Shown here: positions 5,226 through 56,053 of the stretch, one piece after another
Numbering within the stretch: the stretch's first letter is position 1
Layout: every line of letters begins with the position of its first letter
Source of the DNA: Escherichia coli
GTDB lineage: Bacteria > Pseudomonadota > Gammaproteobacteria > Enterobacterales > Enterobacteriaceae
Reading direction: 5' to 3' (one strand)
Assembly: GCF_050920415.1 (NCBI RefSeq)
Contig: NZ_CP169309.1
Length of the DNA: 64,000 bases
Position numbers and translations under genes: made by a program
Notes under the pieces: generated by a model
The model's input: only the letters and a program-made list of their open reading frames with translations
Databases searched by the model: none
Told to the model about the DNA's origin: nothing

Positions 5226-6338
5226 TTATTTTCCGCTCTTCACTTTGGTCCACGCGCGGGTGCGCACACGGTCGATTTTCGGATCCTGCACTTTCAGAGT
5301 GAACAGCTTCGCACGGACATCCGCAGGCGGGTAAATACCGGGGTTATCACGCACTTCCGCGCTTACCAGCGGCGTAGCTTCTTTGTTCGCGTTGGCATAG
5401 AACACATGGTCAGAGATATGCGCTACGACATCCGGACGCAGCAGGTAATTCAGGAACTGATAAGCTTCGTCTTTATTTTTGGCATCCGCAGGCATGGCAA
5501 ATACATCAAAGAATGCCATCGCCCCTTCTTTCGGAATCGAGAACGAGACATTAACGCCATTCTTCGCTTCCTTCGCGCGGTTTGACGCCTGCCAGACATC
5601 GCCCGCCCAGCCAATAGCGACGCAGATATCGCCGTTTGCCAGGTCGTTAATGTATTGAGATGAATGGAAATAACGAATGTTCGGGCGCAGCTTTAACAGC
5701 AGATCGGTTGCCGGTCCGGTGTAATCATCTGCTTTAGTGCTGTTGGGATCTTTACCGAGATAATTCAGCACGGTAGCAAACACTTCTTCCGGTGCATCAA
5801 GGAAAGAGACGCCGCAGCTTTTCAGTTTTTCCAGATTTTCAGGTTTGAGGATCAAGTCCCAGCTATCGACGGGCGCGTTTTCGCCCAGCACCGCTTTAAC
5901 TTTATCGACGTTATAACCAATCCCGGTCGTCGCCCACATATAGGGCATAGCAAATTTATTGTCGGGATCGTGTTTGGCGACCAACTTCAGCAGTTCCGGG
6001 TCGAGATTCTTCCACTCCGGCAATTTGCTTTTATCCAGCGGCTGGAAAACTCCCGCAGTCAACTGGCGCTCCAGAAAGCTGGCAGATGGAACCACCAGGT
6101 CAAAGCCGGTGCTCCCTGCCATTAATTTGCCTTCCAGTACTTCGTTAGAGTCGAAAACATCGTAGACGACTTTAATACCGGTTTCTTTTTCAAAATTGGC
6201 CACCGTGTCCGGGGCGATATAATCAGACCAGTTATAAATGTGGAGTGTTTTTTGTTCAGCCGCGAGCGTGCCGACAGAGACGGCCATCAGAGCACCCGCA
6301 ACCAGACCCGATAGCCATTTTTTATTTAAGGCGGTCAT
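5226..6338 (-). CDS. potF: Putrescine-binding periplasmic protein PotF
   Basis: Internal start MTALNKKWLSG with signal peptide gives 370 aa; the track ORF has a 50-aa N-terminal extension. Confidence 0.94.
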   Translation of the reverse strand: MTALNKKWLSGLVAGALMAVSVGTLAAEQKTLHIYNWSDYIAPDTVANFEKETGIKVVYDVFDSNEVLEGKLMAGSTGFDLVVPSASFLERQLTAGVFQPLDKSKLPEWKNLDPELLKLVAKHDPDNKFAMPYMWATTGIGYNVDKVKAVLGENAPVDSWDLILKPENLEKLKSCGVSFLDAPEEVFATVLNYLGKDPNSTKADDYTGPATDLLLKLRPNIRYFHSSQYINDLANGDICVAIGWAGDVWQASNRAKEAKNGVNVSFSIPKEGAMAFFDVFAMPADAKNKDEAYQFLNYLLRPDVVAHISDHVFYANANKEATPLVSAEVRDNPGIYPPADVRAKLFTLKVQDPKIDRVRTRAWTKVKSGK

Positions 6339-6624
6339 ATCTCTTTCCTTCTGAAAGTTCGTTAACAAACGAACAAAAGTTGTCACACTGAAAGATATGC
6401 AATATTCGTGCATATTTTTTATCGGCTCGGTGTAAGAAAAGAGAACTCTCTCCCGGCCAGCACTGCTCGCTATATAAAAGCATCGCAAGAATAACTTTAG
6501 CCAGGGTTTGAGACTATAGCTCGGATTAAAAAACGGTATTTAACAAATTTTTATGCGTATTTGCTCTATGTGATAAAGCCAAATCGGCACAAGAGAAGTG
6601 AAATAATCTTTAAGAAAAGGTTAA

Positions 6625-7252: not shown

Positions 7253-8155
7253 CTAACCACCCGTTTTCAGGCAATATTCGGTCGTAGCGTGGCGTTCGAT
7301 CCAGCGGATCATTTTACCCGCGATGTCAATACCGGTGGTTTTTTCTATTCCTTCCAGCCCCGGCGACGCATTCACCTCCATCACCAATGGCCCGCGATTA
7401 GCACGCAGAATATCCACACCAGCAACGTCCAGCGCCATCGTTCGCGCGGCTTTTATCGCGATTTCACGCTCCTGTGGTGTGATACTGGCAACGCTTGCCG
7501 CGCCACCTCGATGCAAATTGGAACGAAAATCGCCCTCTTTCGCCCGCCGTTCAATCGCAGCGACCACTTCATCGCCAACAACCAGGCAGCGGATATCGCA
7601 CCCTTGCGCCTCTTTGATATATTCCTGCACCAGAATATGCGCGTTCAGACCGCGAAAGGCGTCAATCACGCTTTCCGCCGCCTGACGCGTCTCCGCCAGC
7701 ACGACACCAATTCCCTGCGTACCTTCAACCAGCTTAACCACCAGCGGCGCACCACCGACCATGTCGATTAAATCGCTGGTATCATCCGGCGAATGCGCAA
7801 TGCCCGTGACAGGCAGGTCGATGCCCTGACGCGCCAGCAGTTGCATCGAACGCAATTTGTCACGCGCCCGGGCAATGGCGACCGACTCATTGAGCGGATA
7901 GCTCCCCAGCATCTCGAACTGGCGCAGTGCCGCCGTCCCATAAAAGGTAATGGCGGTGCCAATACGCGGGATCACAGCGTCAAAATGGGGTAACTTGCGG
8001 CCTTTGTAGTGAATAGAAGACGCCGCAGGATTTATGTTCATGTAGCAAGAAAGCGGATCAAGAATTTCAACCAGGTGACCACGCTGTACAGCGGCTTCAC
8101 GCAGCCGCTTACACGAATAGAGCGTTCCATCCCGGGACAATATGGCAATTTTCAC
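7253..8155 (-). CDS. rimK: Ribosomal protein S6 glutamate ligase RimK (ATP-grasp)
   Basis: 300-aa ORF starting [10 protein letters not shown]; ATP-grasp motifs; matches recalled RimK. Confidence 0.95.
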
Positions 8156-45461: not shown

Positions 45462-46580
45462 CTAGCTGGCCGGGAACATAACTAACAAAACGTATCCCAC
45501 CAGCGCCGCCCACAACAGCATCGGTATTGAATAGAGATGGAAACGCCACCAGATACGGCGATCGTTTGCCATCCGTAACGCAATCAAATTTGCCAGCGAT
45601 CCGGGTAATAAACCAAAGCCACCCACGTTTACCGCCCATGCCAGTAATAAAGACGGTGGCACATAATTGAGCAGCAAAATCGTGCTCGGCACGTTACTGA
45701 TCACCTGCGATAAACCAATTGCCGTTAACCATAATCCGGGTTCGGATAAATGGCTCACATTGCTCAACACGCCCTGCAAAGCTGGCAGTTGGGTCAGCAA
45801 ATGGACGTCGATAAACATCGCCATAAATACCAGCAGCAGAGTCCAGTCCACGCTGATCACCACGCGACGAGCCAGCAGCGCAAAGCCCGCCGCTACAATC
45901 ACCAGTCCCCACAGCTCTTGTTTTAACTCCAGCGCCGTCAGAAAGACGATATACAGCCCCAGACAACTCCACACCAGCCGCGGTTTCCACTCAGGTGTTT
46001 GCGCCCCCGTATGATATTGCAGCGCCTTTCCAGGGAAACAACACCAGCACAGTAGCAGGAGTGTCAGCATCATTGCGCCAGCCAGCGGTGCCATTTGGGC
46101 AATAAACCCGGCAAACGAAAGACCAGAACGACCCCAGATAAGAATATTTTGCGGGTTGCCAATCGGCGTCAGTAGCGAACCCGCATTGACTGCCAGCGCC
46201 TCAAAAATAATCAGTCGATTAACCGGGATCTCACACAGTCTTTTTAGTGTGATTGTCAGCGGAACAACAATAAACAGCGCGACATCGTTGGTCAGAAATG
46301 TTGAAAGCAACGCCGCCGCCAGCACCATAAACATTGCCAGCCGACGCTCAGTAGCAAAGCGGCGCACCATTTTGCGCCCCAGCACATCAAAATAACCGCT
46401 TAACTCCACACCTTTGGTCAGCAGCATCAGGCCACTGAGGGTGATGATAGTGTGCCAGTCGATAGCAGCAAGCCAGGATTTCGGTGCAAAGGGAACGAAA
46501 AAACTTAATCCGATGCCAACAAGAATTAATAACTGAAAAAAGCGATCGCCTTGTAGCGTGCGTAAAAAAGGCAGGCTCAT
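45462..46580 (-). CDS. ybiR: Putative anion permease YbiR (ArsB/NhaD superfamily)
   Basis: 372-aa multi-TM ORF; ATGA overlap with the mntR stop. Confidence 0.9.
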
Positions 46581-47044
46581 TTGGCACCGTGTTTCTGGGT
46601 AAACAAACGAAAGGCATCCAGCGTCTCTTCACTGACATGGTGCTCCATGCCTTCCGCGTCGCGACGAGCGATTTCCGGGCTGACGCCCAACACCAACAAG
46701 AAATTTTCGACTATCTGATGTCGCTCGCGGCTTTCCTGCGCCAGTTTCTCTCCTTCTGCCGTTAAAAACACGCCACGCCAGGGGATCATTTCAATCAGCC
46801 CCATGGTTGCCAGTCGTTTGAGCATTTTAGCCACCGTCGGTTGCGAAACGCCCAGACGAGCAGCCATGTCCACCTGACGAGCTTCCCCCACTTCCCTGAT
46901 CAAGTCAGAAATCAGCTCAACGTAATCATCAATAAGCTCGCGCCGGTGTGCCTCTCTGACCTGGCGGAACCCTTCAACGTGCTCTTCCACATTCACTAAC
47001 TGCGTCACTTTTTTTGCTGTTGGCGTACCTGCGCGACGACTCAT
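46577..47044 (-). CDS. mntR: Manganese-responsive transcriptional regulator MntR (DtxR family)
   Basis: 155-aa [25 protein letters not shown] matching recalled MntR. Confidence 0.95.
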
Positions 47045-47409
47045 TGTGCTTCCTCATTATGGTGACGCATACATAGCGTTCTCATTTCGTGCGCACATTG
47101 TAAACCAGAGTTGCGAAGGTACAAAAAATTAACGTTTTAGCAATAGCTATATAATATAGCTTTGGACCCCAATAAAAACCAAATGAAAACAATTAATTAT
47201 GAAAGAAATATCATTGTAATGTCGCAAGAATGTCGCAGAATTTTGAATTTTACATCAAACAGAAATCTTACATAAGTCGTCGAAAAGGAAAACTACCAAT
47301 ATCTTTTCGGTGTTTCCTTTCCCCAAATGGAATTTTTCCTGTTATGCTAATATTCGTTTTAAGGTGTTGATAACTAACATTACACAAAGCAATTAGAACG
47401 GATACTAAC

Positions 47410-48984
47410 ATGGCTAAAAACGCAAAAAACGAGAAACCAAAAAAGTTAGCTTATAGAATAAAAAGTATTAATATTGAAAAATTAAAAGGTATAAATAACT
47501 GCCCTATTTCCTTCCCAGCAGACAGGTCTGTAACTGCTATAATGGGAATTAATGGTTCAGGTAAATCAACAATATTGCACGCTCTATCATGTGTTTTCAA
47601 ACCCAAAGAAAAATCATCCCAAGAAAATAATAGATTTTCTGACTTCTTTACCCCTCACAATGAAAATAACTGGCAAGATAGTAAATTCTCAGTAAAATTT
47701 CGAGCGGGAGAGATAAAAAACAATGGTAATAAAGTCTTTTTTGAAGAAATAGATAATGAAGAAAAGAAAGATATTGTTTATGGCAAGGATAAAAGGTGGA
47801 AACCAGTTTACGCAAGAAGACTTGAAAGAGAATCTATATATATAGGATTACAAAATCTTGCAACGTTAGCTGACAATACAGGAGCATCAAGATACTCAGA
47901 ATATGAAAGAGTAGATATTTATGATAAAGATATAAAGAATCAAATGATATTAGCTCTGAATAAAATCTTAGATGCAGATTACAACGATTTGTTTGAATGC
48001 CGCACCATTAAGGGAAACAAAAAATTCATAGGCATGGTTAAAAACGGCATTGAGTATACAGAACATACTATGGGTGCTGGAGAAAAGAGAGTCTTTGAGA
48101 TAGTTAAAAATGTTTATAATGGAAAGTTAATGCCCAATGGTTTTCTAATCATTGATGAAATAGATGTTTTGCTACATGAAAGAGCTTTTCATGAATTAAT
48201 TAATTTTCTTATCGAAGAAAGCAAGTCTATGTGTTTTGAGGTTGTTTTCACAACACATAGAGAATCCATAATAAAGTTTAAAAATCAAATCAATATAGTA
48301 AGTATATGGAACATAGGGAATGGAATAGAGGCTTATCCCGGCGTTTCTGCGGATGCTCTTCGACAGATATCCAATGTAGAACCTGATATGGTCAATGTGT
48401 TTGTAGAAGACAACTTAGCAAAAACAGCACTAAATATTTTAGTTGAAAGTGAAGGTATGAATGAACAAGTTGATATCTCGCTTTTTGGTTCGGCTGAGAA
48501 TTCAGCTGTAATTTTGTCAGGACTTAAATTAACTGGCAAACGAATTGATACAAGCCTGGCAATTTTAGACGGTGATTACTATATTACCCTCCCTGAAAAG
48601 ACCAAAATGGTTGATAGAGTGTTATCTGGAACAGATAAAAAAGTAGAAAAAAAAGAAGTCTTATCAAGAATATTCCAATTCAATTTAGATGTGACTGACG
48701 TCAAAGGCTCTCCAGAAAAAAACCATCGTGATTGGTTTGAATCTATAGACGAAAACAATATTTCGGAAAATGATAAGACAATGTTTCTTAACCTGAAAAA
48801 ACATTCTACAAGTATTGGTGCTTTAACTGATTATCATGAATATTATCCAGAGTTAGCTCGAAGGTCAAAATTAGATAATATTGAGTACAAAGTTTTGAAT
48901 TATATTAGTAAGTATAGTAATAAATGGGATTTTTACATAAATGATATTAGAAATGAAATAAAAAAAGCAATTGCAGCGATCTAA
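47410..48984 (+). CDS. ABC-type ATPase fused to a TOPRIM-like domain; class-1 OLD-family-like nuclease, candidate anti-phage defence protein
   Basis: 524-aa ORF in AT-rich DNA. Walker A GINGSGKST (aa 46-54), signature-like MGAGEKR (221-227), Walker B FLIIDEID (245-252), H-loop TTHR (281-284), then a TOPRIM-like Glu (FVEDN, E333) and DxD (LDGDY, 387-389). Own terminator downstream. Confidence 0.6.
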   Translation: MAKNAKNEKPKKLAYRIKSINIEKLKGINNCPISFPADRSVTAIMGINGSGKSTILHALSCVFKPKEKSSQENNRFSDFFTPHNENNWQDSKFSVKFRAGEIKNNGNKVFFEEIDNEEKKDIVYGKDKRWKPVYARRLERESIYIGLQNLATLADNTGASRYSEYERVDIYDKDIKNQMILALNKILDADYNDLFECRTIKGNKKFIGMVKNGIEYTEHTMGAGEKRVFEIVKNVYNGKLMPNGFLIIDEIDVLLHERAFHELINFLIEESKSMCFEVVFTTHRESIIKFKNQINIVSIWNIGNGIEAYPGVSADALRQISNVEPDMVNVFVEDNLAKTALNILVESEGMNEQVDISLFGSAENSAVILSGLKLTGKRIDTSLAILDGDYYITLPEKTKMVDRVLSGTDKKVEKKEVLSRIFQFNLDVTDVKGSPEKNHRDWFESIDENNISENDKTMFLNLKKHSTSIGALTDYHEYYPELARRSKLDNIEYKVLNYISKYSNKWDFYINDIRNEIKKAIAAI

Positions 48985-48991
48985 ACCTCAT

Positions 48992-49021
48992 AAAAGGCGT
49001 AATTTATACGCCTTTTTTTAA
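48992..49021 (+). terminator. Rho-independent terminator after the OLD-like gene
   Basis: Hairpin AAAAGGCGTAATTTATACGCCTTTT followed by a T-run, 8 nt after the stop. Confidence 0.55.
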
Positions 49022-49181
49022 GGTTTAAATTATAGTTGCTAATTTCTACTCTTTGTTCCCTCTGTTCGTGCACGTTTCAGGTAGTAAGCTCTCCATCGAA
49101 CCATAGAGATTGAACGCTTTGATTTTTTTTTACATACTGTCTGAAGCTCATTTACTAAGTATTGATAGTCAGGATGACAAC

Positions 49182-49808
49182 ATGACCTCCTACGATGAAC
49201 TTAAAGAATGCATCCGCCTTGAAGTCATTGGCCATGACAAATCCTTTTCATGGCGTAAAGCGTTACTTCGTACCCGACGCAACCAGAAGAAGCACTTCCT
49301 GTTCTGGTGGCGTATCGCTTCATGGCTCTATGGCCAGAATAGTAAGTTCAAAAAGCGCATTGCCCGCAGAATTGAAAACCGCCTCAAGTACCTGCATAGC
49401 GTTGATATTTCGCTGTCATGCAAAATCGGCAAGGGTTTAAACATTGCTCATCTGAACGGTATTGTCATTACTGACAATTGCGTGATTGGTGATTTCGCCG
49501 ACCTGAAGCAAGGCATCACCATAGGGTTACGCACCGACAGTGCCGACGCGATGATAGTCATTGGTGATCATGTTGATATTGGCTGTAATTCGTCCATTCT
49601 GGGCGGCAAGGTTACGATCGGAAACAATGTCACCATTGGGGCGCATTCACTGGTACTTCAGAACATCCCCAGCGACACCGTTTATAAAAACAAGATCACG
49701 CCGGTGTATACATCCAAACTACCGCAGCAGGAATATCAGGAAAATCGGCCTTTTGTCACTGGCAAGGCGATAAAAGAAGCGTCCCGTTCCGCAGAAGCGG
49801 TGCTGTAA
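49182..49808 (+). CDS. Hexapeptide-repeat (left-handed beta-helix) acetyltransferase, CysE/WcaB-like
   Basis: Start MTSYDELKE preceded by AGGATG; the 232-aa track start at 49110 has no RBS. N-terminal helical region (RIASWLY...RIARRIENRLKYLHSVDI) then hexapeptide repeats IGKGLNIAH-GIVITDNCVIGD-ITIG-IVIGDHVDIG-VTIGNNVTIGAHSLVL. Confidence 0.6.
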   Translation: MTSYDELKECIRLEVIGHDKSFSWRKALLRTRRNQKKHFLFWWRIASWLYGQNSKFKKRIARRIENRLKYLHSVDISLSCKIGKGLNIAHLNGIVITDNCVIGDFADLKQGITIGLRTDSADAMIVIGDHVDIGCNSSILGGKVTIGNNVTIGAHSLVLQNIPSDTVYKNKITPVYTSKLPQQEYQENRPFVTGKAIKEASRSAEAVL

Positions 49809-50186: not shown

Positions 50187-50230
50187 CGCAGCGCCAGCGC
50201 AGCGCCAGCGCAGCGCCAGCGCAGCGCCAT
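50187..50230. repeat. Four tandem copies of an 11-bp unit CGCAGCGCCAG
   Basis: Direct reading: cgcagcgccag x3 then cgcagcgccat, in the non-coding gap between the acetyltransferase and the tail operon. Confidence 0.8.
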
Positions 50231-50315
50231 GCGCACGATCTTTTATGTGTGTTGCGTTGGGTTAATTTGTTGCCTGAAGTGCTGAGGGCGCGTTCTGCTG
50301 CGTCTGAGGAAGGGT

Positions 50316-50352: not shown

Positions 50353-52056
50353 TCAGGCAATTATATTCTGGTACTTGCTCCGGGTCTGCCCTGCTTTCGT
50401 CGCCGTCTGTACGAACGCGTCAGCATTGGTTGGCGTCCCAACAGTGGGGTGTGAATGGTTCGCGCATTGCTGCGCCAGCTCTGCCAGTAAATCAATGGTA
50501 TCCAGCATCATGGTCAGGGCGTTGATACTCTCGCTGCCAATATGGACAGTTGCCCCCATGACCTGCTGACCGCCAGCGGCCACTGATTTACGCAGTGCGG
50601 CAATCTTCTCTGTCAGGCTTTCGCCAACCTCCACGGCTACAGCACCGCCCACTTTAGTGGACTGCTGTCCTGCTATGTCCGTTTCTTCGTTTCCTTCAAT
50701 ACTGGCCAGCCTGTTTCCTTTCACCGCCTGGCTATAATCACCGGCGCTTACCTGCTGGATGGCTCCGGCCAGCAGTGTGGCGGTTCCCAGTACCGTGGTT
50801 TTATCCGTGGCTTTCACCGTGGTTTCACGGCTGACCAGTTCGCGCTGTTCCGTATCGGCTTTTACGGTTCGCGCCATCGATGTTTCGCTGATGGTCTGAT
50901 CGGTCTGCCTTACCCAGTCGCCCGCCTGAGTCACCCTCTGGGATACTTCTTCCCGCTGCTGCTGCAACTGTTCACCGGGTTTAACGTCCGGCAGACTGGT
51001 GCCATCCGGTAGCGTCTGCCTGATAAAAGGTTTATCCGGTCTGCCTCCCGTGAATGCAACCTCAACCAGCGTCCCTTCTGGCGGAAACTGAAACATACCT
51101 GAATCATTCCCGGCCATTGGTACCGGCAGCGGCACCGCTGAATAAACAGGCGTCTGATTGTCCGGGTTTCCGTCTGCGTCAAGCAGCTGCACGTCCACGG
51201 CGTAACGTGGCCGGAAGGGATCGGCAAAGTTACCGCTTTTTACCGGCTCTGAATGCGCCACAACTCTGGCCATCTTTGGCAAATGAAGCCCGGATGCCAG
51301 TTCCGGGTAATGGCTTTCAATCTGCCGTTGCGCCGGTGTTTTCTGCAAAGGTTTACCCGTTGCGCGGTTTCTCGGCGTCCATGTGATCGCCATCGCGTCA
51401 TTAGTCAGGTGAACTTTAGTCACGCGTTCACCGTTCATCTCCACCCCTGGCCGCATAGTCTGGATCACTGGTAATGTCACAGAGTTACCGCCAGCAGCCC
51501 CCTGGCTGAACTCTGACGGGATTTCTACGGGGCGACCGGCAAATAATGACTTTTCTGCGCCGCCGACGTAAAGCGAACCATCAGGCAACTGGTACCAGAT
51601 GTAATCCTGGATACTGAACGCCCTTCCCAGATTGTTCAGCAACTGATAACCAGTACCGTTATGGGTAAAATGTGGGATGGGGGTATCGCTGTACTGTGCA
51701 TCAGGCACACTGACCGTGATCCCGCTGTTTTCTTCCAGCCAGCTGGCAACCTCGCGTAAAGTTGGATGTTGAAATGAGCACGGCCACATCCTTTCAAATA
51801 CACCTGCCAGCTCACGAATGAACAGACGCTGAAAACCGTTTTCAGCGGGCTGCGATCGCTCCACATACCCCGTAAACCAGCGCAAAAGCAGATCGGTATA
51901 CCCCACATCCAGCCGCACCAGTTTTCCGGTGTAATCGGTTGTTGTCTCTGCGGTGATGAAGCCCCGGCCGCAGCTGTTCAGCTCCAGTACCAGGCTGGCA
52001 TCCACCAGGTGAACTTCATCAGTTGAAAGGTAAAGGCGTTTTACTGGTTTCATCAT
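50353..52056 (-). CDS. Phage tail hub/spike-like protein (gpV/VgrG-type OB-fold candidate)
   Basis: 567-aa ORF, last gene of the tail operon; internal segment GTLVEVAFTGGRPDKPFIRQTLPDG resembles the G-x-V-x-V-x-F-x-G-D-x-D-x-P-x-I motif of gpV/gp5/VgrG spikes; Ala/Gly/Thr-rich C-terminal region. Confidence 0.4.
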   Translation of the reverse strand: MMKPVKRLYLSTDEVHLVDASLVLELNSCGRGFITAETTTDYTGKLVRLDVGYTDLLLRWFTGYVERSQPAENGFQRLFIRELAGVFERMWPCSFQHPTLREVASWLEENSGITVSVPDAQYSDTPIPHFTHNGTGYQLLNNLGRAFSIQDYIWYQLPDGSLYVGGAEKSLFAGRPVEIPSEFSQGAAGGNSVTLPVIQTMRPGVEMNGERVTKVHLTNDAMAITWTPRNRATGKPLQKTPAQRQIESHYPELASGLHLPKMARVVAHSEPVKSGNFADPFRPRYAVDVQLLDADGNPDNQTPVYSAVPLPVPMAGNDSGMFQFPPEGTLVEVAFTGGRPDKPFIRQTLPDGTSLPDVKPGEQLQQQREEVSQRVTQAGDWVRQTDQTISETSMARTVKADTEQRELVSRETTVKATDKTTVLGTATLLAGAIQQVSAGDYSQAVKGNRLASIEGNEETDIAGQQSTKVGGAVAVEVGESLTEKIAALRKSVAAGGQQVMGATVHIGSESINALTMMLDTIDLLAELAQQCANHSHPTVGTPTNADAFVQTATKAGQTRSKYQNIIA

Positions 52057-52601
52057 TAACCCAAAGCATCATTGACGGGCTTCAGCACCTTGCGTTCAAA
52101 CCACGTCAGTTTTTCTTCATCTTCTCCGGCAGACTGGCCACCGGACTGTCCCGCACTGCCGGTAGTCTGTTTTTTTGCGGTCGTCTTACCTGTTGCCCTG
52201 GCCTCTCGCTTTTCCTGCACGCTGATATGTTCCGCCAGTGTGAATGTCACCAGCCAGGCCATTTTCCCGTCCTGCTGGGGTGCATCCAGCATTCCGCTGA
52301 ACGTTGCTTCACGAAAATTAACAGCACGGGCAACTTCATGCGCCACGCGGTACTTCTGACGATTACCACTGGCATCGGTAGCACTGGCCAGCTCAAAAAT
52401 ACGCTTCAGTATTTCAGGCTGTTTAAAAGGTATTTCACCGCTGATCCGCAGTTCCTTTCCCTTTGCTCCCTGCTCTGATTTTGTTGTGGCGCTGGTCTGG
52501 CCGGACTGATCTTTATCCTGAAATTGCTGTGAAACAGTCACCCGCATGTTTTTCAGCTGGATGGCCTCGCCATTAAGCGCCAGTGTCGGGATCGAAGTCA
52601 T
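52056..52601 (-). CDS. Phage protein of unknown function within the tail operon
   Basis: 181-aa ORF translationally coupled to neighbours; no recognisable motif; Lys/Gln/Gly-rich C-terminus. Confidence 0.35.
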   Translation of the reverse strand: MTSIPTLALNGEAIQLKNMRVTVSQQFQDKDQSGQTSATTKSEQGAKGKELRISGEIPFKQPEILKRIFELASATDASGNRQKYRVAHEVARAVNFREATFSGMLDAPQQDGKMAWLVTFTLAEHISVQEKREARATGKTTAKKQTTGSAGQSGGQSAGEDEEKLTWFERKVLKPVNDALG

Positions 52602-53298
52602 GAATCATTCCCTTTATTCCATCAAGATTATCGCCAACCAGCATCATGGCAGCGGTGTAAACGGCAGACTGCTGCGGAATGTCCTTCACCAGTTCCAGTA
52701 ACGTGGTGCCGGTGTCTCCGCTGGCAGTAAAAACCCACACTCTGGCACTCTTTCCCTGTAAATCATTCAGGCCGCTGGCTACATCACTGATAAGCTGGTC
52801 ACGCAGCTGCGTGAACTCGCCCAGCTGTTTTTTCAGCCCTTCGATATCAAACCCGGCATCCGCCGCCTTTTGTGCCTGGCTGATTGCCGTAGCAGATAAA
52901 GCTGCCCTGCTGGTTGGTACAGACAGCGGAATGGACGCAGGTAACGCTGCGGCGGTTTTCGCAGGGATCTGCATCTTTTCAATAGCCAGCGCTGCGGCGG
53001 ATTGCGCCAGTCGTTTGACCTGCGTGAATGCCGGGGCGGGGAAAATCCCGACCAGGTTATTCAGGCTGGCCATAAAGTTTTCCTGTGTCTGTCCGGTGAC
53101 CATCATAATCACCACGTCCGCATTCCCCCCAGTTCCGGCCAGGCGTTCAGCAAGATAGCGAACGGCATTAACCGGGCTGAGATATGCCCCGTTCGCAGTC
53201 TGCTGTCCCAGCCCATAAATCCACGGATGCGCAGGAACGATCGAACAGTTCAGCGCAGCAACAGAATCCGTGAAGGCCAGACGTGCTTCACGCCACAT
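52573..53298 (-). CDS. Phage protein of unknown function within the tail operon
   Basis: ORF 52573-53334; start chosen at MWREARL to minimise overlap with tfa; no recognisable motif. Confidence 0.3.
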   Translation of the reverse strand: MWREARLAFTDSVAALNCSIVPAHPWIYGLGQQTANGAYLSPVNAVRYLAERLAGTGGNADVVIMMVTGQTQENFMASLNNLVGIFPAPAFTQVKRLAQSAAALAIEKMQIPAKTAAALPASIPLSVPTSRAALSATAISQAQKAADAGFDIEGLKKQLGEFTQLRDQLISDVASGLNDLQGKSARVWVFTASGDTGTTLLELVKDIPQQSAVYTAAMMLVGDNLDGIKGMIHDFDPDTGA

Positions 53299-53875
53299 TT
53301 CCAGGCACCTCCGGCCACACAATTTCCGGCGCATCTTCCGGTTGAATACGGTTCAGTAAAACGCGGTATTTTTTCCAGGCGGTAAGCAGCAGTGCTTCTT
53401 CTTCAGTCGCCATGTCTAAATCAACGGCATCCTGCAATGTGGCAATGGCGTCATTGGCCTGTTTAAGCAGTCTTTTCTTTTCGGCGTCTGCCTCGCTGAC
53501 TAATGCAATTCGCATGGCCTCCGCATCATCCACCCACGCCTTACCATTCCATTTTTGCCAGGCATTAGCCGGTGCAGACGTGGTTGTCCCTTCCGGGTAA
53601 GCGCCTGGCTCGGTGATCACCAGTTCATTACCGTTTTCTGTATCAAACACCACCTCACCACGATGATCCTCACGGGAAATCCATCTTTGCTTCTCTGAAT
53701 CAAAAATTGCCACAAACCCCGCTTTGATTACCGGTGGTTTTATTGTGGTGCAGTTAGCTGGTAGTCCGGTATGCGCAGGTATAAAAGCGTCACCCGAACC
53801 AATAAATTCATTCGTGTCGGAACGCAGGTTATAAACAGTAACTATTTGATCGGTTTCACTCATTTTAAAAGTCAT
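53288..53875 (-). CDS. Tail fiber assembly protein (Tfa family)
   Basis: 195 aa; close resemblance to recalled E. coli TfaE/TfaQ-type proteins (NEFIGSGDAFIPAHTGLPAN ... KWNGKAWV ... LLTAWKKYRVLLNRIQPEDAPEIVWPEVP). Confidence 0.8.
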   Translation of the reverse strand: MTFKMSETDQIVTVYNLRSDTNEFIGSGDAFIPAHTGLPANCTTIKPPVIKAGFVAIFDSEKQRWISREDHRGEVVFDTENGNELVITEPGAYPEGTTTSAPANAWQKWNGKAWVDDAEAMRIALVSEADAEKKRLLKQANDAIATLQDAVDLDMATEEEALLLTAWKKYRVLLNRIQPEDAPEIVWPEVPGNVA

Positions 53876-55449
53876 TATGCGAGTCTCACTATGTAGTTAA
53901 ATGCAATATTCTTAACGGTCGTTTCTGCGTTGCCCGACGCGGCGACGGTAATGGTGTGGCTATGTGCGCCAATTGCCACGGTATGAGAGTGAGCGCCAAT
54001 ACCTACGGTGTGATTATGTGCACCAATGGCTACGGTGTGCGCGTGGTTTCCCGCCGAACTGGTGGCGGCTCGCCCCTGATCGCTACGTGGTACCCCCCAG
54101 TCACTACCACCTGATTGCACGTTCCCGCCATAACCAATGGTGTGCGTATGCGCTCCCGTGGTATTTGTCGTTTTCGTGCCATAGTCAAACGTGCTCGCCG
54201 TTTTAGTACCGTAATCAAAGGACGATGTTGGTTTTGTCCCCAGATCGGTACTGGATGCACTGGCTGTGTGGTCATGAGATTTATTGCCATCATCTTCATA
54301 GGAGAGAACTGCGCGACCGTCTGGCTTTCCTTTGATTGTCTGGCGGCGCATGTCAGTAATAACACCCGATGGATACGCAGCAGCCAGCAAAGGATATGCC
54401 GCCGTATTAAAAGACTGCCCCTGCATAATTGCCCATCCAGTAGGTGGGATATCCGTTGGCCATGGAAGCGGCACACCAACCGGCAGAACATCACTGCGAC
54501 TTAAAACGGCCAGTTCACCCAGATCCAGACTTTTTCTTGCTTTTACTTTGTCGTTAACATCAGCAAGGTTTGCATCCTTACGCAAAAAATCGCTGCTGGC
54601 CTGCTGTTCTCCCAGGCTACCTTTTGGCCTTAAATCCGTGATGTTGCCATCCGCATCAATGCTGGCCACAGCAAACACATAATGCTGAACCCCGTTCTGA
54701 ACGTAATCAGCAAGATTTGCAGCCACCGTGATTTTGCTCTGCACATTCCAGACACTGGTCAGCGTCCCTGTCCAGCACACATCCAGCCAGACTTTTACCG
54801 GCTTTGTCGTTACCGTAATATTCTGATTCGCAGCCAGTGACGCACGAAGTCCAGCCACATACCCCGTGCCTTTCGTGACAAAAAACTGATTTCCGGTTTT
54901 GGCTACCAGATACCCGTTACCAAAAAACGCCGCCGCGCCATAAATATCCATATTTTCCAGGCGCTGGCGCTCATCCATTCCGGCCATACGCGCTGTAAAA
55001 TCAATCTGCCATGTTTCAGCGGGTGTATTAATCCCGGTTTCCGTTTGTGCGCCGTTGTACTCCATCAGAAACGAGCGGGTCAGCACGTTCCCCTGTTGAC
55101 CTTCTTTTGTTTTCAGTTTCTGCTGTGATGGTGCATGGACAATCATTGCCAGAGTACCGCTGGCCTTATTGAGCAGACCGATCCAGTTAAAACTGAAATC
55201 ACCCACATCTGCGCCCAGCACTACGGAATAAACCACCCCGTTTTCATTCACCACACCGGTGCGGGTAACAGATTGCCGGTGAACAATCTGTGCTGTCGGG
55301 GGCAACGCTTCATTGCGGTCAACAGGTGTATCCGGGTTTAAATCCGGCACACTGGCAAAAACAAATTCATCCAGTAGTACCGGTTCACCCGTTGCGCCCT
55401 GCTGTGCTTTCCAGTTTTCAAACGCCAGTGTGATGGCTGTCTGTGACAT
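53875..55449 (-). CDS. Side tail fiber protein
   Basis: 524 aa; C-terminal HxH repeats [49 protein letters not shown] typical of Stf-family fibers; immediately upstream of tfa. Confidence 0.8.
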
Positions 55450-55459
55450 AAAAACCTCC

Positions 55460-56053
55460 TTACAAACTCGCGCTGAATGTTGCGCTGCGGGCTTCCGTCC
55501 CTGCTAACGTCGCCGGGTAAACCACATATTCCCCCTGATCCCACCCAGCCCTGATAACCAGGCTTTCAGACGTGATCACCTCAAACTGATAACGGCGGCA
55601 TGTTCGCCCGTACTGGCGGATTATCTGGATCAGCAGCTGCGTGTTGTCTGCAATCTGGCTGTCTGTAACCCGAACCAGAATCACATCCCAGTCGATATCC
55701 GGTTGCCGTTCTAACAGCTCCACATAACCAATTCCCAGCCGTTCAAAGATATTGATAAACCCCTCTACTGAACCGGCATCCCGCGCATTCACGAAGGCAA
55801 AAGCCACGCGTTTGCGGAACAGGGTCAACGGTTCACCATCAAAGCGGGTGATATCCCGGTCATAAGCCAGCAGATTCAGTAATGCCGGTGTACACGTCAG
55901 CGGATCAAACTGGTTCATTGGCCAGGTAACCCAGCCGTAAACCTCAGCCCAGAACCGCCGCGCCGCTTTCAGCAATTTCCCCGGTTCACCTTTATTCATC
56001 CAGGAAGGCAAGACCATCCCGGCCAGCTTTTTCATGAACTCATTCATTCTCAA
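55460..56053 (-). CDS. Tail protein, YmfQ/gpI-like (DUF2313-type)
   Basis: 197 aa between the baseplate J-like gene and the fiber, as for e14 ymfQ; family assignment is from memory only. Confidence 0.55.

Follow-up and report, generated by a model that had tools for sequence, protein, structure and literature searches.

The two 11-bp units that form a tandem direct repeat at 47218-47241 of the analysed Escherichia coli DNA (the whole stretch of 64,000 nucleotides, hereafter the window) very probably represent the int-distal arm-type Int-binding sites in the att site of a P2/186-family (Eganvirus-like) prophage. As judged by sequence comparison, the repeat is located 59 nt inside the int-distal end of such a prophage, which is integrated in the mntS promoter beside mntR. 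The assignment as arm-type sites is based on the position at the junction, the partner pair at the other prophage end, the correspondence with phage 186, the invariance of the repeat despite turnover of the neighbouring cargo genes, and the co-variation with Int. A repeat of this kind is an expected and ordinary part of a prophage, and is new only in its heptamer, TGTCGCA, which differs from that of 186. The two predicted sites are as follows.

47218..47228, + strand: predicted arm-type site 1, AATGTCGCAAG, with the invariant heptamer TGTCGCA at 47220-47226 (alignments A1 and A2)
47229..47239, + strand: predicted arm-type site 2, AATGTCGCAGA, with the invariant heptamer TGTCGCA at 47231-47237, 11 bp past site 1 (alignments A1 and A2)

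As read from the window, 47218-47241 is composed of AATGTCGCAAG, AATGTCGCAGA, and a terminal AT. The exact 9-mer AATGTCGCA is situated at 47218-47226 and 47229-47237, the only two occurrences found in the 64 kb by pattern search, and Tandem Repeats Finder assigns to 47218-47241 a period of 11, 2.3 copies, and 92% matches; hence, the unit is 11 bp and not 12 bp. The first-pass annotation had rightly described two adjacent near-identical units, but its 12-mers overlap by one base. Its placement of the repeat about 170 bp upstream of the ATPase start in AT-rich DNA agrees with the distance of 169 bp to the ATG of the ATPase ORF (47410) and with a local GC content of approximately 32-35%. For the exact pattern TGTCGCA-N4-TGTCGCA, the window yields one occurrence where 0.01 would be expected, and any match was obtained in only 1 of 100 shuffles. 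When two mismatches are allowed, the count within the window is not significant (0.68 expected), so the case against chance rests on the comparison between loci. A general repeat search of the window did not list the 9-mer pair, the two copies probably being too short and too close.

An RNA explanation of the repeat was rejected, since no Rfam match exists at 46900-47500 (elsewhere in the window only sub-threshold chance matches occur) and the predicted fold of the 47163-47415 transcript is no better than that of shuffled sequences (z = 0.08). Coding by a small ORF of 46 aa (47230-47370), the start of which lies inside unit 2, was likewise rejected; the ORF is kept in the related element of strain AHB29, but its region is replaced in all other loci compared while the heptamers stay, and coding therefore cannot explain the conservation. 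A scan for consensus promoters and terminators gave nothing convincing at the repeat.

The repeat lies in host-prophage junction DNA, the landmarks of which are listed below.

46577..47044, - strand: mntR, the host gene flanking the prophage (Pfam Fe_dep_repr domains; annotated as mntR in all E. coli matches)
47145..47161: palindrome AGCTATAT-A-ATATAGCT, host attB and att core (inverted-repeat search; K-12 attB; comparison of both prophage ends)
47162..47217: spacer between the att core and the arm pair, conserved in length but not in sequence

The left part of the window belongs to the E. coli core genome (ybiT, ldtB, ybiR, and mntR), and homology to 5,421 of the 5,426 complete E. coli genomes ends at 47160-47163, just past the palindrome and TATAATATAGC. 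The latter (47150-47160) is the stretch common to both prophage ends. Inside the palindrome, which we take to be the MntR operator, TATAAT at 47150-47155 constitutes the -10 element of the mntS/rybA promoter; in K-12, the palindrome is followed by mntS, and TATAAT ends 8 nt before the start of the rybA/mntS transcript according to the rybA coordinates. In the window, the palindrome is followed instead by an island of 31% GC with the ATPase gene, then by an acetyltransferase-like gene and by tail and baseplate genes of the P2/186 family. The first heptamer starts at 47220 and so belongs to the host-prophage junction, inside the range of about 50-150 bp from the att core where arm-type sites are expected. 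The first-pass annotation had placed the repeat in a junction region and suspected a protein-binding site there, and both points are borne out.

The whole element can be read in two relatives, 1919D3 and AHB29, where a P2/186-type prophage of 29-32 kb is inserted between mntR and mntS; its int adjoins mntS, and its CI, CII, Fil, and Apl-position genes are of the 186 type. Of five short fragments of the MntS peptide, none matched the window, and mntS is located past the far end of the prophage in the relatives. This prophage end is rare, being present in about 22 of the 5,426 complete E. coli genomes, and a literature search combining mntS, prophage, and integrase returned nothing relevant.

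Beyond the arm pair, the prophage end carries the following genes.

47410..48984, + strand: ATPase cargo gene, 524 aa, ABC/OLD-type AAA ATPase (Pfam SMC_N/AAA_15/AAA_21)
49182..49808, + strand: serine O-acetyltransferase-like gene (hexapeptide repeat), the first gene at the phage end that recurs in some other such prophage loci
50353..64000, - strand: tail, baseplate, and tail-fibre genes of the P2/186-family prophage (Pfam HP1_ORF34, Phage_tail_fib, and Gp5_C; prophage maps of relatives)

The prophage runs past the end of the window, and int lies outside it. In the PADLOC comparison, the ATPase matches HEC-04 best (3e-33), followed by ATPase-Toprim_I-B (1e-20). According to the GC profile, the gene is contained in a low-GC island at 47050-49100 (roughly 31% GC), and this cargo occurs in only 1 of the 5,426 complete E. 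coli genomes. Directly past the ATPase stop (48985-49020), a hairpin GGCGTA-ATTTA-TACGCC followed by T7, absent from the output of the consensus scan, looks like an intrinsic terminator and appears to mark the right edge of the low-GC cargo. In addition, an 11-bp GC-rich unit, CGCAGCGCCAG, is present in 4.4 tandem copies at 50187-50235 (Tandem Repeats Finder score 89), in the intergenic region between the acetyltransferase-like gene and the gene for a spike-like tail protein of 567 aa, where the only Rfam overlaps are below threshold.

The stretch from the far arm pair to the first conserved phage gene (47240-49180) constitutes a small cargo hotspot, also seen in L002, L132, L136, L138, and L139. 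Seven different contents, several of them defence-like (ATPase with HEC-04 as best match, retron-type reverse transcriptase, and ATPase with STAS and PIN), were counted among nine loci. The sequence of the spacer between core and arm changes along with the cargo.

The repeat has a known counterpart in phage 186, whose record (NC_001317) annotates predicted Int arm-type sequences with the consensus YAYCGCCAYTY, three to the left and two to the right of attP. On the int side, the direct repeats GAATGGCGATA, AAGTGGCGGTA, and GAAATGGCGAA follow each other with an 11-bp period and precede the Apl and IHF sites and the tRNA-Ile core, and on the far side GAGTGGCGATA and GAATGGCGGTG, together with one inverted copy, are situated past the core and the terminator of the lysogenic operon. 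The layout of EtG, MHG75, BIS20, and ENT90 is the same, and their int-side repeats overlap the C-terminal codons of Int. The pair in the window matches the far-arm pair of 186 in period, copy number, orientation, and side.

A second, co-oriented pair is found at the int end of the relatives. In both 1919D3 (L005, 43 kb) and AHB29 (L133, 39 kb), each end of the prophage bears one copy of the tandem motif, both on the same strand, and there is no third copy; the far-side copy is separated from the core by 61-62 nt, and the int-side copy, TGTCGCAAAAATGTCGCG, is embedded in the last codons of int at a distance of about 96 nt from the core. PSJ-16 (L137) possesses the same arrangement, so that co-oriented pairs on both arms are present in L005, L133, and L137, all of them relatives, the int end being outside the window. 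The first-pass annotation had suggested looking for the motif elsewhere in the element, and this search thus yielded the partner pair in the relatives and, within the 64 kb, no further copy of the 9-mer.

The motif extends to more distant phages. A scan of viral contigs for TGTCGCAANNNTGTCGC returned at least 120 matching loci, and among the matches listed most are unrelated chance matches. Also among the matches listed, in at least 15 loci, diverged 186-like int genes have the pair at their 3' end, with Apl-like repeats next and the tRNA-Ile 3' end or the mntS promoter behind these, and at least seven or eight loci carry it directly after the terminator behind the tRNA-Ile core, which corresponds to the far-arm position of 186. 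In the viral contigs of these int-end and tRNA-Ile contexts, the flanks are strongly diverged and the heptamers are exact.

Two further observations were made in the viral contigs. At least 14 gut-phage contigs among the matches listed (for example L125, L009, L031, L040, and L061) form an unrelated group with TGTCGCA at 11-bp spacing; a tRNA-like core is flanked by the heptamer, with two copies on one flank and four on the opposite one (L125, reverse strand, 6144-6410), and the repeats adjoin an opposite-strand ORF of 366 aa, a putative integrase. In L017, L100 (around 7950-8130), L101, and L118, a single tRNA-Ile core is flanked by arm repeats of two classes, and each such core probably marks where tandem or decayed prophages meet at a shared attB.

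The integrase provides an additional line of evidence. The Int of this prophage type is 62% identical to the 186 Int over its length. Its Pfam domains start at residue 61 and its sequence matches in the PDB (HP1 and P2 integrases) at residue 54 or later, and residues 1-55 are predicted to fold into three strands and a helix, for which the structural evidence is moderate. A fold of this kind is presumably that of the arm-binding domains of the lambda and Tn916 integrases, and the N-terminal domain of lambda Int resembles AP2/ERF domains. The cognate enzyme is accordingly a heterobivalent tyrosine integrase with a separate N-terminal domain, predicted to bind the arm sites.

Within this domain, five residues of strand 2 track the arm repeat. 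All 15 of the integrases associated with a TGTCGCA arm possess the strand-2 sequence W(I/V/C)ADFY; the six with a TGGCG arm (186, EtG, MHG75, BIS20, ENT90, and PhiECO1 of E. coli HS) all possess W(I/L)(C/S)E(L/C)Y; and both of those with a TGGCAGC arm, (A)ATGGCAGC in tandem (L100 around 7950-8130), possess WQAQVF, these counts being drawn from phylogenetically related sequences, so that the events are not independent. The relationship correctly predicted the arms of the S.Kent phage, whose Int is 76% identical, belongs to the ADFY class, and is followed by an extra ORF: approximately 790 bp downstream of int there is a TGTCGCAAAAGTGTCGC pair, with Apl-like repeats and the tRNA core immediately behind it. 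Conservation through the C-terminal codons of Int was rejected as an explanation, since the far-arm copy is non-coding and the int-side pair of S.Kent lies 790 bp past int; the motif therefore follows the att arm and not these codons. PhiECO1 (PMC3448106) was considered as the present element and rejected, being located between rcdA and ybjL and having TGGCG arms. On a speculative reading of low probability, competition between related phages for one attB might have driven the three arm classes (TGGCG, TGTCGCA, and TGGCAGC) apart, so that each phage would be insulated from the others.

The occupation of the repeats by another protein, namely an Apl/Cox-type excisionase, CI at a flanking operator, or IHF, rather than by Int, is highly unlikely in light of these data. 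The att site of 186 also contains Apl and IHF sites, CI possesses distal sites, and the repeats are assigned to Int by comparison and not by footprints, all of which would allow such a reading. However, 186 has its Apl sites only on the int-proximal arm, where they separate the arm repeats from the core, and their sequence is different; here, the Apl position is taken by distinct repeats with a period of about 10 bp (ATACTGCC/ATACTCAC/ATATTAAC), while the TGTCGCA pairs occupy the Int-annotated positions on both arms and co-vary with the N-terminal strand of Int.

The arm-site assignment is further strengthened by the comparison of nine int-distal junctions (the window, AHB29, 160-11H1, 1919D3, PSJ-16, SC477, 20KM0223N, JNE25-001, and Citrobacter amalonaticus). 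The window and AHB29 carry the ATPase as cargo, and 1919D3 and PSJ-16 carry none; 160-11H1 contains a tRNA-like remnant and a retron-type reverse transcriptase, SC477 three small ORFs, 20KM0223N a DprA-like set, JNE25-001 an ATPase, STAS, and PIN set, and C. amalonaticus three other ORFs. Of these nine junctions, with six cargo sets or none, eight contain TGTCGCAA-N3-TGTCGCA unaltered, and the motif does not travel with a particular cargo or regulator. The first-pass annotation had made its own proposal depend on conservation in homologous islands, and such conservation is evident in these eight junctions of the same prophage type. In a five-sequence alignment of distinct junctions, no block but the heptamer pair is invariant once the att core is set aside. 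In seven of eight loci, the first heptamer is 61-63 nt away from GCTATATAATATA, and in 20KM0223N 103 nt; the sequence between them is not conserved. A search of genome contigs for the core-to-arm pattern found a single species representative, Citrobacter amalonaticus. As far as can be read from these alignments, the repeat is kept exact while the surrounding DNA is replaced, and is functionally constrained.

The exception is JNE25-001 (L139, reverse strand, about 90 nt from the core; L140, 1400-1440), in which the far pair is degenerate (TTGTCTCAAAAGAGTCTCA) and the int-side pair is intact. Its Int likewise looks intact and is identical to that of 1919D3 at 333 of 347 aligned positions (stop included), and this prophage may be unable to excise, given the decayed far pair. 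Meanwhile, the prophages of PSJ-16 and 160-11H1 are visibly degraded. PSJ-16 (L137) is a deleted remnant with only about 4 kb from mntR to mntS, and both of its arm pairs are exact. 160-11H1 (L002, 4320-4510 and 5913-5935) contains three arm pairs, the third of which has decayed to TGTCGG, and between the first two lies a 148-bp segment with homology to the attP core of 186 (tRNA-Ile 3' end and terminator of the lysogenic operon). The sequence of this segment suggests that the mntS-integrating lineage derives from, or has recombined with, tRNA-Ile-integrating relatives.

A relic or a chance duplication, produced by replication slippage or left as the scar of an AT-rich cargo insertion and devoid of present function, is slightly less probable still. 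The exact pattern is expected only 0.01 times per window, both heptamers are invariant in eight loci with diverged or replaced flanks and are held at 61-63 nt from the core in seven of them, and slippage would not account for the further copies at the opposite end of the prophage and in other phage genera. These points outweigh the non-significant two-mismatch statistic within the window, the decay of the far pair in one relative (JNE25-001), and the degradation of several such prophages (PSJ-16 and 160-11H1), on which a relic could be argued. An insertion-junction remnant had been the second suggestion of the first-pass annotation, and its first half holds, since the repeat is at the junction and matches the 186 arm sites; the pair is nevertheless not a scar, having been kept exact while its flanks were replaced.

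The least probable explanation is the other suggestion made there, an operator through which a repressor or activator, bound to the tandem repeat, would control the ATPase promoter: direct repeats in tandem, spaced by one helical turn, are a common form of protein-binding site, the pair is 170 bp upstream of the ATPase start, and arm sites can double as operators, as reported for KplE1 IntS (PMC2951348), but the motif is exact before unrelated cargo and where cargo is absent, recurs at the int end about 30 kb away and in tRNA-integrating relatives, and is accompanied by no regulator gene beside the ATPase cargo, and no sigma-70-like site on the + strand overlaps it (the consensus scan gave no + strand promoter-like site at 47200-47410 and one weak - strand match, this being a crude scan whose match count in the region equals the shuffle expectation).

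Under the arm-site assignment, a mechanism can be proposed from the paradigm of 186, P2, and lambda. The small N-terminal domain of Int would bind the two TGTCGCA heptamers, which are one helical turn apart and on the same face of the DNA, and simultaneously the core-binding and catalytic domains of the same protomers would bind the core TATAATATAGC, 59 nt away, thereby bridging arm and core. The intasome would be formed by the far pair, the co-oriented int-proximal pair, and bending by IHF, as well as by Apl on the other arm. Such an intasome would carry out integration and also excision from this junction, which would be one of the two excision partners. Both the physical binding of Int and the requirement of the pair for recombination are what we infer from the same paradigm.

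The position of the insertion has consequences for the host promoter. After integration (attB at 47145-47165), the intact mntS promoter stays beside mntR and points across the arm pair to the ATPase gene, and the consensus scan detected no terminator between the two. The mntS gene, now downstream of int, keeps only the -10 element, with phage DNA upstream of it (L004, 3560-3590; L005, 29110-29140). With a host promoter left pointing into the prophage and mntS left with a -10 element only, lysogeny may therefore alter the regulation of mntS, and may also put the cargo under manganese control. Since the host promoter points across the arm pair towards the cargo, the precedent of KplE1, in which the IntS arm sites are reported to double as the operator of intS (PMC2951348), becomes relevant. 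The arm pair might by analogy double as a roadblock or operator, such that expression of the cargo would depend on manganese (through MntR) and on occupancy by Int, although the likelihood of this additional role is small.

Recognising the repeat as an att arm prevents its mis-annotation as a cargo operator, and the pair marks the exact inner boundary of a small and rare cargo hotspot beside the far arm of the mntS-promoter prophage. Furthermore, a TGTCGCA arm-site class is hereby defined within the 186-type integrases, for which no description was found in the papers searched, and the three-way correspondence between five strand-2 residues of Int and the arm heptamer provides a testable specificity code for the engineering of integrases.

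Compared with 186, the present system possesses an orthologous integrase, and 11-bp direct repeats with one orientation throughout both arms, the int-side repeats being located at or behind the int terminus and the far pair behind the core; the tRNA-integrating TGTCGCA phages also share the placement of the terminator with 186. There are, however, differences. The recognition sequence is TGTCGCA here and TGGCG(R)T in 186, and the strand-2 residues of Int are correspondingly ADF here and CEL in 186. A third, inverted far-arm site was not seen here. The core is the mntS promoter and MntR operator, whereas 186 utilizes the 3' end of tRNA-Ile (ileY), and the far arm lies about 60 nt from the core with no terminator in between, compared with about 100 nt in 186.

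In the case of P2, the arm sites have reportedly been tested biochemically. They are direct repeats with the consensus tgTGGaCa, bound via the N-terminal domain, and P2-type and 186-type integrases differ in their arm-repeat consensi, as stated in PMC3448106. The integrase here belongs to the same family, its N-terminal domain would likewise act as the reader, and the type of Int and the repeat consensus are paired in the manner described there (PMC3448106), but the repeat sequence is another one, and the C/Cox module of P2 is represented here by CI/Apl/CII. In KplE1, the arm sites are reported to overlap the int promoter (PMC2951348), whereas the pair here is located 170 bp upstream of a cargo gene. 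Lambda (P1, P2, and P'1-P'3) has arm sites with no detectable sequence relationship to the present ones, and their number and layout differ. Nevertheless, the heterobivalent logic is the same, with the N-terminal domain on the arm repeats and the C-terminal domains on the core; in both systems, neighbouring arm sites are about one helical turn apart, and the predicted fold of the N-terminal domain is of the same type, three strands and a helix.
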